A stretch of DNA of 64,000 nt from a virus (Duplodnaviria; Heunggongvirae; Uroviricota; Caudoviricetes), in the IMG/VR virus record IMGVR_UViG_2571042690_000019; one strand, written 5' to 3'. The first letter of the stretch is position 1, and every line of letters starts with the position of its first letter. The notes under the pieces were generated by a model. It saw only the letters and a list, made by a program, of their open reading frames with translations. It ran no database searches and was not told the DNA's origin. Of the stretch, positions 39,375 to 43,210 are shown piece after piece. A program made the translations under genes and the position numbers.

Positions 39375-39767
39375 CTACCAGCGAGACAAACGAACAACAT
39401 GTTTCACTTTTGCGATCCACTGTCCGCGATAACTATTGATTACGGCCTGTGCCAGCTTCAAATTGGCTTCAAAATCAGCCTTACTACCATCAGACTCCAC
39501 CAGCATTCCTCCATCTATTTCTGGTAAACATAGATAATCCTGCTCAACCTGCAGCGGCATTGATGGCTCTCTGAATGGGGTTACTTGCTCTGCTTTCCAG
39601 CGAAATCTAACCCTTATCCCCCTGGTGGTCATTACTAGATAGCCTGTTATAGTGCTTTTATGGCCCACATCAGTACGCGTGGCATTGCATGACACGATCT
39701 TACAGTTAGCGATAGACCACTCCATATTGGTGGCCTGTTGAGTGCTTAATTTGGTAGTCCCGTACAT
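39375..39767 (-). CDS. hypothetical protein
   Basis: 130-aa ORF. Confidence 0.45.
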   Translation of the reverse strand: MYGTTKLSTQQATNMEWSIANCKIVSCNATRTDVGHKSTITGYLVMTTRGIRVRFRWKAEQVTPFREPSMPLQVEQDYLCLPEIDGGMLVESDGSKADFEANLKLAQAVINSYRGQWIAKVKHVVRLSRW

Positions 39768-40342
39768 CAGAAAGCCTCCCAGTCAGTCGCGATAATATCC
39801 ACACCAGTTGCAAACCAGTCTGTCTGCGCCTGTAAATCCCCATTCATCATTACCAGGCGAGGCATCACCATCACATCGCACCCTTCCACAATATCGAATG
39901 CCTCTTCCGGCAAGAATTCGAAGAGCTTTTCTTTGCTGCCAATACTGCCACGGAACATCGATATATAGCTCCCTTTGGGCCATGATGTCCGCCGGGCATC
40001 AAGCCCTTTCATCATCCAGTAAAAAGCCGAGGAAAAAGGGATATTCTTTTTGCCAATGATTACATTATTCGCTTCTGTGTACTTCAGGAACTTAACTAAC
40101 CTTACCATTGACTCGGATAACGCAACGTATGGCTCATGATTGATTGCTGACACGCTTACACCGTGCAATCCAACGCTTACCACTGTCATATCGCCGCTCT
40201 GTGCGGTTTCGATATTGACGCCTTTGCGAACTAATGAGGCGTAAAGTTCCTCTCGCTTTTGGGTCCAGCGTTCCCGCTTCCCTATGAAGTCACTCAAAAT
40301 GAGATCTTCTTCTGCATATGCGTTATCGTTCGCCATTAACAT
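39767..40342 (-). CDS. DUF2829-like phage protein
   Basis: AFYWMMKGLDARRTSWPKGSYI segment. Confidence 0.5.
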   Translation of the reverse strand: MLMANDNAYAEEDLILSDFIGKRERWTQKREELYASLVRKGVNIETAQSGDMTVVSVGLHGVSVSAINHEPYVALSESMVRLVKFLKYTEANNVIIGKKNIPFSSAFYWMMKGLDARRTSWPKGSYISMFRGSIGSKEKLFEFLPEEAFDIVEGCDVMVMPRLVMMNGDLQAQTDWFATGVDIIATDWEAF

Positions 40343-40796
40343 AACGTCTCCTTTTTACACGCGCGACCATCTCTCGGTTAAACCGATAGAGATGTCGAAA
40401 CTTCGTATTAATTAAGGGTTACAGCCTGAGCGGCTATATGATGAATTGAAAGGAGTTGTGGCGGTGGTGCCTCCACCTGCCAGGTCAGCCACGCCCGGCG
40501 ACGACACTTATCAGAACCTCAATGAATGAAAATGGCTTCGTCACGAGCGCATAGCCGCAATTACCACAACGGAAACGGCGCTCGCGTTAATTAAACGCCT
40601 TTTCCTGTTGTGCGCCGTACTCTTCCGGCTGTCACACCGAATCGCCAGGATGGTGAGTCCTCGGTCCGACGATATGAACGGGGCTTGCACATTCCGGCTA
40701 CCTGGTTTGTTGCCTGAGCTAGGGGAAAAGGTAACCCCTTTAACGTCACCAGACCGCTAACGACGCATGTGCCAGACGCCGTGTTACAACCAAATA

Positions 40797-40872
40797 TGGT
40801 GGCCCCTACCGGACTTGAACCGGTGACCGTGCGATTATGAGTCGCCAGCTCTAACCACTGAGCTAAGGGGCC
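40797..40872 (-). tRNA. tRNA-Ile (anticodon CAU, ileX-like) or tRNA-Met
   Basis: GGCCCCTTAGCTCAGTGGTTAGAGC...CTCATAA...GGTTCAAGTCC...GGGGCCACCA; cloverleaf folds; near-identical to E. coli ileX as recalled. Confidence 0.75.
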
Positions 40873-40881
40873 AATTAGTTT

Positions 40882-40995
40882 TTATTTTCGACGCCTGAGA
40901 TTCTTCGCTACTTGTTCTACTCCGTATACGATCACAAGCAGAAATAGCAAAGACCATCCAGGGTTCTTATCAATATACGTCCAAAAATCCATCAT
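40882..40995 (-). CDS. possible small membrane peptide (36 aa)
   Basis: manual translation MMDFWTYIDKNPGWSLLFLLVIVYGVEQVAKNLRRRK; ATGA overlap with upstream ORF. Confidence 0.25.
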   Translation of the reverse strand: MMDFWTYIDKNPGWSLLFLLVIVYGVEQVAKNLRRRK

Positions 40996-41156
40996 GAGTT
41001 CCTGAACGCAGCTTTAATAATCGGCAATAGCAATACCACAGCTACTGAAACCAGTGCCCCATCAGCCAACACCGACATCACTTTGCTGGTGAAATCCACC
41101 AGCACGGACAAAACGAGAAAACCAATGGCGCACGCAATACGCGCCTTGCCAATCAT
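40992..41156 (-). CDS. possible small membrane peptide (52 aa)
   Basis: manual translation MIGKARIACAIGFLVLSVLVDFTSKVMSVLADGALVSVAVVLLPIIKAAFRNS; TAATG overlap with TerB-like gene stop. Confidence 0.35.
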   Translation of the reverse strand: MIGKARIACAIGFLVLSVLVDFTSKVMSVLADGALVSVAVVLLLPIIKAAFRNS

Positions 41157-41590
41157 TACAGATAATCTTCCACACGAAGGCCCAAACGACGGCCTACTTC
41201 TTCCAGTACTTTGTGTTCTGCTGGCTCGATTTCACCGTCCGCTTCTGCAATCGTCAGCATGTTAACGAATACTTCTTCCGCTTCTTTTGGATCATTTTTG
41301 ATATCTTCAATTTCGCGAAGGATATTCATGCGACCAACACGGAAACCAGCTTCCAGTTGCTCAGTAAAACGGGTGATTGTTGCGGTAATTTCGTTGCCAA
41401 AATGACTTAAGCGAGGATTAGAGCGGACAAGCTGATCAAGTTTCGCTGTTTCTTCCTTTTCGATTTCACCATCTGCGGCAGACACCAACAAACAGCCACC
41501 GATAATGGCCTCCATCAGATCGCGATTCTCAACCCTTTTCAGCTCTACTTTTGCTGAAGCGACTTTCTTACCGAAAAATTTACCGAACAT
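41156..41590 (-). CDS. TerB-like protein (tellurite-resistance TerB fold; P1 tciA-like)
   Basis: 144 aa with repeated ADGEIE-type acidic motifs; located in the tRNA cluster as tciA is in P1. Confidence 0.5.
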   Translation of the reverse strand: MFGKFFGKKVASAKVELKRVENRDLMEAIIGGCLLVSAADGEIEKEETAKLDQLVRSNPRLSHFGNEITATITRFTEQLEAGFRVGRMNILREIEDIKNDPKEAEEVFVNMLTIAEADGEIEPAEHKVLEEVGRRLGLRVEDYL

Positions 41591-41857
41591 TGGTTATCCC
41601 TCAATAAACATGACGTATTTATTAGGTTGCGGTGCCTGGTGCCTCCAGGTGACGTTAACCAGTTAACAATTAACGCCGGGATGTTTGACTTAACCACTAA
41701 GGAGGATTGTTTTAACTGTTCCGCGTGCGCATAGCCGCATTCACCGCAATGGTAAGAGCACTTGGCTGGCTGGGCGGCGATGACGCCTGTACGCATTTGG
41801 TGATCCGGTTCTGCTTCCGGCATTCGCTTAATTAGCCAAATACTCTTAACGTTGCAC

Positions 41858-41944
41858 TGGCGGAGAGTAATGGAATCGAACCATCATCGCTTGCGCAATG
41901 GGACGGTTTTCAAGACCGTTTGAGCACCATGCTCCCTACTCTCC
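41858..41944 (-). tRNA. tRNA-like gene, possibly tRNA-Ser (anticodon UGA), non-canonical A8
   Basis: 7-bp acceptor stem, anticodon arm ACGGT-CTTGAAA-ACCGT similar to E. coli serT, long variable arm, TTCGATT T-loop, 3' CCA; D-arm atypical. Confidence 0.35.
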
Positions 41945-42277
41945 AGTGATTGTGATGGTCGGTGCTGAACTCCGACACAGGGTTGTAGCAAGCCCCGCAA
42001 AGCGCGCACTACTGTAGTTGCGGCACATCAGCCTGTGCATTCACCACAATGTTGAGAACACTGGTTGTCACGCTGCAACGCAACATTTATTCGTAGATTG
42101 GGATATGACCCCGTTACGCCAGTGTTCTCAACGTTATAGTGCCGGTTACGGTTCCGGCCAGGCCTCTTCCTCAACGGGGTGTTCTCCATACGGACTACCG
42201 TTTATTGGTCGTTCCTGCGGTTTATGTTGTGAAGCCAGATGCTTATCTTCTGGTTGCTTCAAAGAGCTGCACTTCAT

Positions 42278-42345
42278 CACAACGGTAAGAGCACTCGATG
42301 CATTTAAGCCAAGCCCCATAAGGGAGAATGCCCTTACCTGTTGTG
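42278..42345. repeat. conserved-stem hairpin element (CACAACGGTAAGAGCAC ... GCCCTTACCTGTTGTG)
   Basis: imperfect inverted repeat sharing stem consensus with elements at 42474..42560 and 42917..42991. Confidence 0.5.
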
Positions 42346-42473
42346 TTGTGATGACCGGTGCTGATCTCCGGCTTGCGGTTATTTCAGACTCTCACGGGCG
42401 TTTAATTGCCCCGCCGAACAGCTCTTTTCCGCAATAGCTGCAATGTCTTTCGCGCATCAGCCTGCGCATTCAT

Positions 42474-42560
42474 CACAACGGTAAGGGTACTTCGTAGGGA
42501 TTCGAACCCTCTGCCAAGCTCGGCGATCTCCGACGTCGCAAAATACCCTTACCTGTTGTG
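42474..42560. repeat. conserved-stem hairpin element enclosing a tRNA-like T-arm fragment (GGGATTCGAACCC)
   Basis: CACAACGGTAAGGGTAC ... TACCCTTACCTGTTGTG inverted repeat, immediately downstream of tRNA-Thr on the minus strand. Confidence 0.5.
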
Positions 42561-42561
42561 C

Positions 42562-42637
42562 TGGTGCCGATTAACGGACTCGAACCGCTGACATCCTGCT
42601 TACAAGGCAGGCGCTCTACCAACTGAGCTAAACCGGC
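42562..42637 (-). tRNA. tRNA-Thr (anticodon UGU)
   Basis: GCCGGTTTAGCTCAGTTGGTAGAGC...CTTGTAA...GGTTCGAGTCC...CGGCACCA cloverleaf. Confidence 0.8.
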
Positions 42638-42639
42638 AT

Positions 42640-42715
42640 TGGCGATGGTGGATGGATTTGAACCATCGACCCGTTGATTAACAGTCAACCGCTCTAACCG
42701 CTGAGCTACACCATC
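42640..42715 (-). tRNA. tRNA-Asn (anticodon GUU)
   Basis: GATGGTGTAGCTCAGCGGTTAGAGC...CTGTTAA...GGTTCAAATCC...CACCATCGCCA cloverleaf. Confidence 0.8.
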
Positions 42716-42916
42716 ACTTGCCGGGTACGTCTCCGGCGAGGGCTTCCACCTCCGTATGCTTTTCGGCGCACCGCGCCCTGGGTGCAATTCGGTAACAGGG
42801 GATGCACAACCCTGGCTTCCAGCGTGATTAGCGCCTTCAGCATGACGGGATATACCCGTAGTAGGATGTTATCCCAGAAAGCCATTAACCAATGGCTGTT
42901 ACGCGGGAGGGACGTA

Positions 42917-42991
42917 ACAGGTAAGGGCGCTGACCAGAAAGACCTGACCCTTCTCATTCATCTGGTTAATCACACCAGCGCCCTTGCCTGT
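42917..42991. repeat. conserved-stem hairpin element (ACAGGTAAGGGCGCTG ... CAGCGCCCTTGCCTGT)
   Basis: 16-bp near-perfect inverted repeat with GGTAAGGG core. Confidence 0.5.
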
Positions 42992-43210
42992 TATGCCTCC
43001 CCGTTCCCTAATACACAGACGGGGACACTCTGCGGTCGATTTTTTGACGGGGGACGACTCATACCCCGTGGCGTCAGGCTTCTTAGGCCGCTACCATCAT
43101 CAGATCATCGTTTGCATTTACTTTAATGGTCGGGTTCTAAACCGCCGCAAAGTCGCTAACCATGACGAAAACCCTAAAAAAGCCCACCCGAAGATGGGCA
43201 AATACGCTAC

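Follow-up and report, generated by a model that had tools for sequence, protein, structure and literature searches.

In the phage-plasmid P1, the genes tciA, tciB and tciC and the tRNA-Ile2 gene trnI are annotated with a function given "by homology," and their counterparts in the P7 record are named terB, upf69.4, upf69.6 and tRNA-Ile. In the record of the phage-plasmid D6 (NC_050154), only homologs of tciA and tciB are found (i.e., orf8 and orf7). In ter operons, TerB is encoded together with the membrane protein TerC. These operons have been associated with phage inhibition (Phi) and colicin resistance (PacB) (PMC7371120). TerB domains also sit in validated defense systems alongside membrane proteins; the TerB-like DinB of Dionysus is encoded with the membrane proteins DinA and DinC, and TerB has been proposed to be an amphitropic membrane surveyor (bioRxiv 10.1101/2025.09.30.679545). 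Here, we analyzed a 64,000-nt stretch of DNA from a virus of the class Caudoviricetes (IMG/VR record IMGVR_UViG_2571042690_000019; hereafter the window), in which a block of three genes (positions 40882-41590) is followed by a tRNA gene, all on the minus strand. Sequence comparison shows that this locus is an accessory module already known and named in P1 and P7, tciA-tciB-tciC-trnI, in the version of the D6 lineage.

Finding these genes here is by itself ordinary, as the P1 names date from genome annotation, Pfam and PHROGs include the families, and the D6 record already lists tciA and tciB. What the present comparison adds is the strict coupling of TerB and DUF3927 (i.e., the families of TciA and TciB) across four or five phage backbones, of which P1-like, lambdoid, P2-like and Klebsiella phage-plasmid backbones can be named, and the recognition that TciC is lineage-specific and that TciC of the D6 type is routinely left unannotated.

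Gene content and junctions of the locus

The window region is ~98% identical in DNA sequence to D6; the window is also ~92% identical to P7 and to a P1 variant over the common parts, and ~95% identical to the reference P1 over a smaller part. An earlier, sequence-only reading of this DNA had noticed a likeness to the P1 tciA-tciB-tciC block, and alignment bears this out: the loci are syntenic and homologous, and the same holds for terB-upf69.4-upf69.6-tRNA-Ile of P7. The blocks of the window, P1 and P7 have the same gene order, strand logic and overlapping junctions and nearly identical tRNAs, and each lies after a tRNA-Asn/Thr array and behind a leader of ~480 nt. The window differs from P1 and P7 in having an additional upstream tRNA-Ser and in its downstream genes: where P1 and P7 have ban and dbn, it has a Tad2-like gene, lpa and pacAB. 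It differs from P1 also in its proteins. The likeness of TciA to that of P1 holds at the level of the family, with only 30% identity, whereas its type is that of P7 TerB, to which it is 99% identical; TciC is divergent (31% identity, 36 vs. 35 aa).

The product of the tciA-like gene (41156..41590, minus strand) is a cytoplasmic protein of 144 aa with a TerB domain, of the same type as P7 TerB, in agreement with the TerB-like gene that the earlier reading had placed there. The TerB domain was detected by Pfam PF05099 at 54.4 bits (cut-off 24.4) over residues 27-143; the protein matched phrog_632 of the PHROGs (E = 6e-63), and its residues 16-138 aligned full-length to the nuclear magnetic resonance structure of Klebsiella TerB, 2JXU (E = 2.3e-7). 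With this ter-operon TerB, TciA shares the domain over its full length, a purely helical fold and acidic DG...E motifs in duplicate; two acidic motifs with the sequence ADGEIExxE and a basic N-terminal helix (MFGKxFGKK) are kept across the family. The AlphaFold2 (AF2) model of TciA, which was based on a 31-sequence alignment, had six helices and a predicted local distance difference test (pLDDT) score of 91.8. The top Protein Data Bank match of this model in Foldseek was the small helical protein 2H5N (probability 1.0, template modeling (TM) score 0.52-0.59), with a weak E value (0.06), and 2JXU itself was not recovered by Foldseek. As Foldseek gave only 2H5N at a weak E value, the assignment of TciA to TerB rests mainly on sequence. 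The ratio of nonsynonymous to synonymous substitution rates (dN/dS) of tciA between the window and P7 was 0.043. It should be noted that an apparent TerB-DUF3927 fusion (P0056) and a 175-aa TerB (P0026) were also encountered, both of which look like truncation or frameshift artefacts.

The tciB-like gene (40992..41156, minus strand) encodes a hydrophobic DUF3927 peptide of 54 aa, which matched Pfam PF13064 at 66.8 bits (cut-off 25) and phrog_1470, the family of P1 TciB (E = 3.5e-21), and is 61-67% identical to the TciB of P1 and P7. With dN/dS of 0.25-0.35 at dS values of up to 1.1, tciB is, by this measure, under purifying selection. The peptide contains the signature VDF(T/S)S...S...DG, in which diverse members never vary at D21, F22, S28 and D32 and hardly vary at S24 and G33; these invariant polar residues suggest that TciB has a specific site and is more than a passive anchor. 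The grand average of hydropathy of TciB is ~1.5, and two uncharged runs are found at residues 7-20 and 33-47. Judged by composition, TciB and TciC are both membrane peptides, as both have uncharged runs with basic termini. A word-indexed protein search with TciB returned 6 proteins and an exhaustive phmmer search only 20 clusters at E ≤ 1e-3, so that the DUF3927 family is small. A perfect 7-bp inverted repeat in tciB (GCTGGTG-GATTT-CACCAGC) was considered as a candidate element and rejected, given that it is broken by synonymous changes in distant loci and is a by-product of the V-D-F-T codons.

The tciC-like gene (40882..40992, minus strand) encodes a single-helix peptide of 36 aa, MDFWTYIDKNPGWSLLFLLVIVYGVEQVAKNLRRRK. 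Two tiny hydrophobic open reading frames (ORFs) overlapping through TAATG and ATGA had been proposed for this part of the block, and the sequence agrees. The TAA stop of tciA and the ATG of tciB share 1 base (TAATG), and the TGA stop of tciB overlaps two in-frame ATGs of tciC (ATGATG). Initiation at the first ATG (at 40995) would give 37 aa with an ATGA overlap, and initiation at the second would give 36 aa with a TGATG overlap. The TGATG form of the tciB-tciC junction is kept in 73 of the 73 P1/P7/D6-type loci, which identifies the second ATG as the conserved start and makes the 36-aa form the likelier TciC product. Of the peptide lengths proposed earlier (52 and 36 aa), that of tciC can therefore stand, while that of tciB has to be corrected to 54 aa. 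Among the three genes, only tciA has a strong ribosome-binding site: a Shine-Dalgarno-like GAGGGA, as read from the sequence, is at 41597..41602 (minus strand) and ends 6 nt 5' of the tciA ATG, with its GAGG core 8 nt from the ATG. An AGGA is located 7 nt 5' of the conserved tciC ATG, and an AGGA is found 6-7 nt 5' of the tciC start in both D6-type and P1-type sequences, although the amino acids encoded there differ.

Three variants of tciC were distinguished: the D6 type given above, a P1 type (MGFWDFADKHPIVLVVIAGIVVGGIAGVIEALRKQ) and a second P1 type with a IVLIIIVAIVVGGIV core. In all three, an FWxxxDKxP motif at the N-terminal end is followed by one hydrophobic helix and a basic tail. In a pairwise BLASTP, TciC of the window aligned to P1 TciC without gaps at 31% identity (E = 1e-7 for the single comparison). 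Its best PHROG match was the P1 TciC family phrog_23152, which was weak (E = 0.15, 12.8 bits, positions 1-33 of 35), and no other family matched; P1 TciC itself matched phrog_23152 at E = 3e-27.

In public annotation, the near-identical locus of an E. coli plasmid in RefSeq is given as TerB, DUF3927 and tRNA-Ile, with the third ORF uncalled. The sequence-only reading had described both small ORFs as missed by its ORF track. For tciB this does not carry over to the public records, as tciB is annotated everywhere; it does for the third peptide, which is uncalled in the D6 record and by the Prokaryotic Genome Annotation Pipeline (PGAP). A few E. coli and Salmonella annotations in NCBI do list the exact 36-aa TciC, under the name "hypothetical protein." The absence of the small ORFs from related genomes had been named as what would speak against them; they are conserved, with the junction present throughout the P1/P7/D6-type loci.

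Distribution of the TerB/DUF3927 pair

The loci compared comprised 78 IMG/VR loci with a DUF3927 relative and its flanks, plus P1, P7, D6 and the window (82 in all; single loci are cited by L numbers). A scan of genome collections added 11 intact loci, which raised the number of intact DUF3927 genes to 93; many of these loci are near-identical, and they represent about a dozen distinct lineages. In 82 of the 82 loci, a TerB gene ends at the start of DUF3927. The gene upstream of DUF3927 was likewise TerB in each of the 11 added loci (purpose-built hidden Markov model, E ≤ 1e-26), in which no third ORF was found. All 93 intact DUF3927 genes follow TerB with an overlapping stop and start (TAATG, TGATG, GTGA or TTGA); the exceptions, L094 and L100, are truncated DUF3927 remnants. 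The comparison identifies the TerB/DUF3927 pair as the conserved unit, a mobile two-gene cassette of temperate enterobacterial phages, and TciC as an add-on that is specific to the P1/P7/D6 lineage.

The backbones that carry the pair are diverse. L073-L081, a distant group of loci, come from non-mobilizable Klebsiella plasmids of ~110 kb, presumably phage-plasmids, with TerB and DUF3927 only and with a terminator, GGAGCTTCGGCTCCTTTTT, immediately 3' of the DUF3927 stop. In the lambdoid prophages L082, L091 and L097, the pair lies between the antiterminator Q and the holin/endolysin genes, while in the P2-like prophages L085, L086 and L098 it lies between a CII/CP76-type regulator and the replication gene A. 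In another prophage (L093), the pair is found near RecT.

TerB genes related to tciA are also found with other partners or alone. In a Pseudomonas prophage (L083/L084, 4001-5007), a TerB gene whose product shares 74% identity with TciA overlaps the next ORF, which encodes a non-homologous, signal-anchored protein of 67 aa without a family assignment. This arrangement suggests, at the level of gene layout, a more general design of TerB with a small membrane partner. In L083, a CsrA-family gene follows the 67-aa ORF. The region is flanked by a Bro-N antirepressor-like gene on one side and an integrase gene on the other. In a phage-like contig, a related TerB is located beside ThyX and ribonucleotide reductase (RNR) genes without a small partner. 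Given the Pseudomonas prophage and this contig, the pairing rule does not hold in reverse.

Within the P1-like phages, the module is reassorted: two TciA types, which are 30% identical, each pair with either of the P1-type TciCs, and a breakpoint between P1 and P7 lies inside tciB. In phage RCS47 (L089, 2795-3622), the slot 5' of trnI holds one 275-aa lipoprotein-like gene in place of tciABC. In several P1-like phages, a gene of ~275 aa in the same slot is annotated as lipoprotein, serine protease or SPFH-domain protein. The slot 5' of trnI seems to be a variable cargo position that favors membrane-associated genes.

Proposed role and competing explanations

Whether the coupled products of the tciABC-trnI module form a membrane-associated TerB complex for envelope protection appears to us evenly balanced, and this is the reading that we put forward. 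In this proposal, ribosomes that end tciA would re-initiate on tciB and then on tciC, which would yield the products together and in fixed proportions; such re-initiation is suggested by the presence of a strong ribosome-binding site at tciA only and by the universal overlaps. As the tRNA gene begins only 9 nt downstream, cleavage by RNase P at the 5' end of the tRNA probably sets the 3' end of the mRNA. TciB, joined by TciC in the P1/P7/D6 lineage, would reside in the inner membrane and either recruit TciA or be regulated by it. The output would most likely be envelope protection of the infected or lysogenic cell, by superinfection exclusion and/or resistance to pore-forming colicins, which we propose with modest confidence, and the module would be dispensable for the phage's own lytic growth. 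P1 tciA, tciB and tciC were non-essential in a screen by CRISPR interference (PMC10695390).

The proposal is modeled on systems in which TerB works with membrane proteins, and the differences from those systems are considerable. In contrast to ter operons, TerB of the window is stand-alone, and its would-be membrane partner is a 54-aa peptide instead of TerC. The module resembles Dionysus (DinA/B/C), Shango (SngA) and Bunzi (BnzA) in that a TerB-like protein is encoded with membrane proteins, for which membrane surveillance has been proposed. However, the partners in these systems are pore-forming toxins, helicases or ATPases rather than tiny peptides, and the module of the window is phage-encoded, lies in lytic-phase operons and has no significant match in PADLOC.

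Several observations weigh against the proposed protective complex. The AF2 prediction for TciB is one continuous helix (residues 2-52), with no hairpin of the kind that hydropathy would predict; given the disagreement between this single helix and the two hydropathy segments, no membrane topology is claimed. When TciA was searched with PADLOC, no defense-system model was matched, and the best hit was PDC-S48 at E = 0.0048 over 36 residues; TciB and TciC gave zero matches. No published functional test of the tci genes was found in the literature, where the names are given by homology only. Stand-alone relatives of this TerB are found in virulent phages and beside genes of nucleotide metabolism, a setting that agrees better with a function in the lytic growth of the phage itself than with protection of the host, and the pair itself lies in lytic-phase transcription units of the P1, P2-like and lambdoid backbones.

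A broader proposal is that the pair, with TciC where it is present, is a minimal membrane module of several unrelated temperate backbones that blocks superinfecting phages or pore-forming colicins, or disarms TerB-based host immunity. We offer it tentatively, as a possibility that is considerably less probable than a protective complex in the window. If it were true, a system of two or three genes and <250 codons would be the simplest tractable one for asking what TerB senses or binds at the membrane. TerB domains appear in validated anti-phage systems without a known mechanism, and a very small phage-borne module of TerB and peptides would be a convenient experimental handle. The comparative results reveal no mechanism, and the function of these genes is an old and minor question.

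The main rival to envelope protection is the lytic program itself: the module may serve the phage's own lytic cycle by stabilizing or conditioning the inner membrane (i.e., proton-motive force or ion and metal balance) or by tuning the timing of lysis until the holin fires. We consider this unlikely on balance, even though much of the genomic context is consistent with it. In three independent lambdoid prophages the pair is directly between Q and the holin/endolysin genes, and it lies in the early operon of the P2-like prophages and in the C1-repressed ban operon of P1 and P7; close TerB relatives are found in virulent phages beside ThyX and RNR, and tciA, tciB and tciC are transcribed during P1vir infection (bioRxiv 10.64898/2025.12.28.696737). 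Position alone is weak evidence, however, given that the slot between Q and the holin gene is a generic moron slot that also receives stx, tRNAs and small RNAs (sRNAs). No resemblance to any holin, antiholin or spanin emerged when the proteins of the block were searched against Pfam and PHROGs. P1 also does not require these genes to form plaques, although a plaque assay would miss effects on timing or fitness.

A second alternative to the protective complex, which we regard as distinctly improbable, is counter-defense, in which the phage TerB would mimic or titrate the TerB sensors of the host (Shango, Bunzi, Dionysus and ter) or blunt abortive infection triggered at the membrane. TerB domains are components of several host defense systems, and the slot varies between P1-like phages. 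The neighborhood also carries anti-defense cargo, as the next same-strand gene after the tRNA gene encodes a Tad2-like anti-Thoeris protein of 191 aa (39767-40342, minus strand, 455 nt 3' of tRNA-Ile; Pfam PF11195 at 39.1 bits, cut-off 25). PGAP names this 191-aa ORF "Thoeris anti-defense Tad2 family protein," and the D6 record lists it as hypothetical orf6. The adjacency to Tad2 is D6-specific, however, as P1 and P7 carry ban at this position. No sequence match to the defense TerB proteins of PADLOC was found, and no anti-defense protein is known to have a TerB fold, which also counts against this explanation.

It is less probable still that the small peptides are membrane toxins (i.e., inhibitors of growth or division), with TciA as a co-translated antidote or regulator, in an addiction or host-arrest device. 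Such a device would match the tci name, part of which stands for "inhibition of cell division," very hydrophobic peptides of 36-54 aa resemble type I toxins in size and composition, and obligatory coupling to the upstream gene would tie the dose of toxin to that of TciA. Nevertheless, no antisense RNA or toxin-antitoxin signature was found, and the strongly conserved polar residues of VDFTS...S...DG suggest a specific site, not generic membrane damage. Outside the P1-type contexts, a plain terminator follows the pair, and D6-like plasmids already hold two toxin-antitoxin systems (PMC6799933).

We consider it very unlikely that the third ORF, or both small ORFs, are untranslated and that the stretch is a 3' untranslated region and tRNA leader. 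For tciB this is excluded, as tciB belongs to a Pfam family and has purifying selection and a conserved junction. For tciC, several observations could be read in this way: an open frame of 36 codons has a chance of (61/64)^36, or ~0.18, which is not significant alone, and no family hit of tciC was significant (E = 0.15). Also, tciC is absent from all non-P1-type cassettes and skipped by PGAP, and its dN/dS among the P1 types ranges from 0.13 to 0.64, based on few substitutions. On the other hand, synonymous sites between the D6 and P1 types of tciC are saturated (proportion of synonymous differences 0.84-0.94, of nonsynonymous differences 0.51), and the frame, the TGATG junction, the AGGA, the FWxxxDKxP motif, the hydrophobic core and the basic tail are nevertheless kept in the three variants. 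Since frame, junction, motif and hydropathy survive saturated divergence, a coding tciC is much the likelier reading.

Least credible of all is a genuine determinant of tellurite resistance, although membership in the TerB family and the product names in databases speak for it. The annotated neighbors of tciA, as far as the surrounding regions were examined, are tRNAs, tciB and tciC, the Tad2-like gene and packaging and morphogenesis genes, and terZ, A, C, D, E and F are all missing from these annotations. The ter operon has been called incomplete in a study of D6-like elements (PMC6799933), and the authors of phage studies judged a lone terB to be insufficient (PMC8421299, PMC6799933).

tRNA-Ile2 and the surrounding RNA elements

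The tRNA gene 9 nt 3' of the tciC stop (40797..40872, minus strand, 76 nt, anticodon CAU; ARAGORN, and Rfam tRNA at 66 bits) is labeled tRNA-Met(CAT) by ARAGORN, but its identity here is tRNA-Ile2. In its D arm, anticodon arm and acceptor stem, the gene does not differ from the chromosomal E. coli ileX, and the differences between the two in the T stem are compensatory. The identical acceptor stem includes the pairs 4:69 and 5:68, which E. coli TilS uses as its major identity elements (PMC11947777). The matching gene in RefSeq was tRNA-Ile in every row listed, which formed an even sample of the ranking, and a match to tRNA-Ile2 was present in 5426 of 5426 complete E. coli genomes. The sequence-only reading, which had called the adjoining tRNA an Ile tRNA, was thus right, as both the ileX-identical arms and RefSeq indicate. 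C34 of tRNA-Ile2 is expected to be modified to lysidine, and the tRNA to read AUA. In D6, the tRNA-Ile2 sequence has one mismatch in the T stem and the gene is unannotated; the mismatch probably explains its absence from the record.

AUA makes up 19% of the Ile codons, or 11.9 per 1000 codons, in the 44 ORFs of the window with at least 150 aa. The share of AUA among the Ile codons of E. coli is ~7%, much below that of the window, and the AUA-rich window fits the carriage of a tRNA-Ile2 gene. The tciABC genes contain no AUA, which rules out that the tRNA serves the codons of the block itself; together with the 19% AUA in the long ORFs, this indicates that tRNA-Ile2 serves the phage at large.

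Upstream of the block, a tRNA array occupies 41858..42715 (minus strand) and consists of Asn(GUU) at 42640-42715, Thr(UGU) at 42562-42637 and Ser(UGA) at 41858-41944 (ARAGORN and Rfam). ARAGORN, Rfam and PGAP agree on the strand of these three tRNAs, whereas the D6 record places them on the other one. The best score of tRNA-Ser(UGA) (41858-41944, minus strand) was to the tRNA-Sec model at 45.1 bits (threshold 47), probably owing to its long variable arm; according to the D6 record, tRNAscan could not call the amino acid of this tRNA. The P7 record is without the tRNA-Ser seen at L002 (5242-5326). The set of tRNAs beside the pair varies among P1-like phages (L004, L010, L046, L049 and L071): it can be Asn-Thr, Arg(UCU)-Tyr-Thr or Asn-Ser, and Ser may be present or absent. 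Some lambdoid loci also have tRNAs next to the pair, namely tRNA-Arg in the case of L082 and three tRNAs in that of L099. No tRNAs were found in the examined flanks of the pair in P2-like prophages and Klebsiella phage-plasmids. Given that the pair also occurs there without tRNAs, its tRNA and sRNA company reflects the cargo slot and is not a requirement of the TerB/DUF3927 pair.

Between the array and tciA, a partial, sub-threshold match to the sRNA family STnc100 (Rfam RF02076) is located at 41628..41748 (minus strand) and ends ~38 nt 5' of the tciA start. It scored 40.1 bits against a gathering threshold of 47 (E = 1.6e-7; model positions 31-147 of 206), so that it falls short of membership, and its local fold is unexceptional (z = -0.7). 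Equivalent partial matches are found 5' of tciA in P7, P1, L004 and L049, and full-length STnc100 flanks the pair in the lambdoid L082 (80 bits, upstream of the pair) and L099 (96 bits). The STnc100 sRNAs are known from the Q-lysis region of prophages, and related sRNAs, PasA/PasC, have been seen with TerB genes nearby (bioRxiv 10.64898/2026.05.13.724894). The locus thereby resembles the moron cassettes between Q and the holin gene of lambdoid phages, which hold ileZ-argN-argO tRNAs, STnc100/Pas sRNAs or stx: the pair occupies this slot in L082, L091 and L097, and the window keeps an STnc100-like leader and a tRNA of the ileX/ileZ type. In contrast to these cassettes, that of the window is in a P1-like phage-plasmid without a Q/PR' system, and its STnc100 match is partial.

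The leader of ~480 nt 5' of tRNA-Asn (~42716-43200, minus strand) is apparently non-coding, almost invariant in comparison with P1 and P7, and far more conserved than tciB or tciC. It starts at a hairpin, TTTGCCCATCTTCGGGTGGGCTTTTTT, which is the 3' end of the annotated "dicF-like region" of P1, and it contains a hairpin with 27-nt arms in which a T-A pair is replaced by C-G in a compensatory change relative to P1. In the annotations of P7 and P1, the tRNAs, the tci genes and ban are in one C1-controlled operon, and the tRNA array and the tci block of the window are probably part of the same transcription unit. The C1 operator and P_ban promoter, which are just 5' of the leader in P1 and P7, are missing in the window, and no match to the P1 C1 operator consensus was found in the whole window with up to 3 mismatches allowed; the control of this unit in D6-type elements must therefore differ from that in P1.

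Long hairpin repeats occupy the spacers of the tRNA array, with one per spacer of the tRNA-tci unit. Fold and repeat analysis located strong copies at 42906-43002, 42469-42563, 42273-42348 and 42042-42141, and degenerate copies flank the tci block at 41740-41762 and 40560-40615. The consensus of the arms is CACAACrGGTAAGrGC ... GCyCTTACCyGTTGTG. Four copies, with stems of 20-25 bp, were far more stable than shuffled sequence (z = -4.2 to -5.3), and the paralogs have 18 consensus pairs in common, 3 of which show compensatory changes. These hairpins could be processing sites for RNase III/E, decayed tRNA-like elements or recombination repeats for the exchange of cargo. One copy holds the T-loop-like sequence GGGUUCGAAUCCC.

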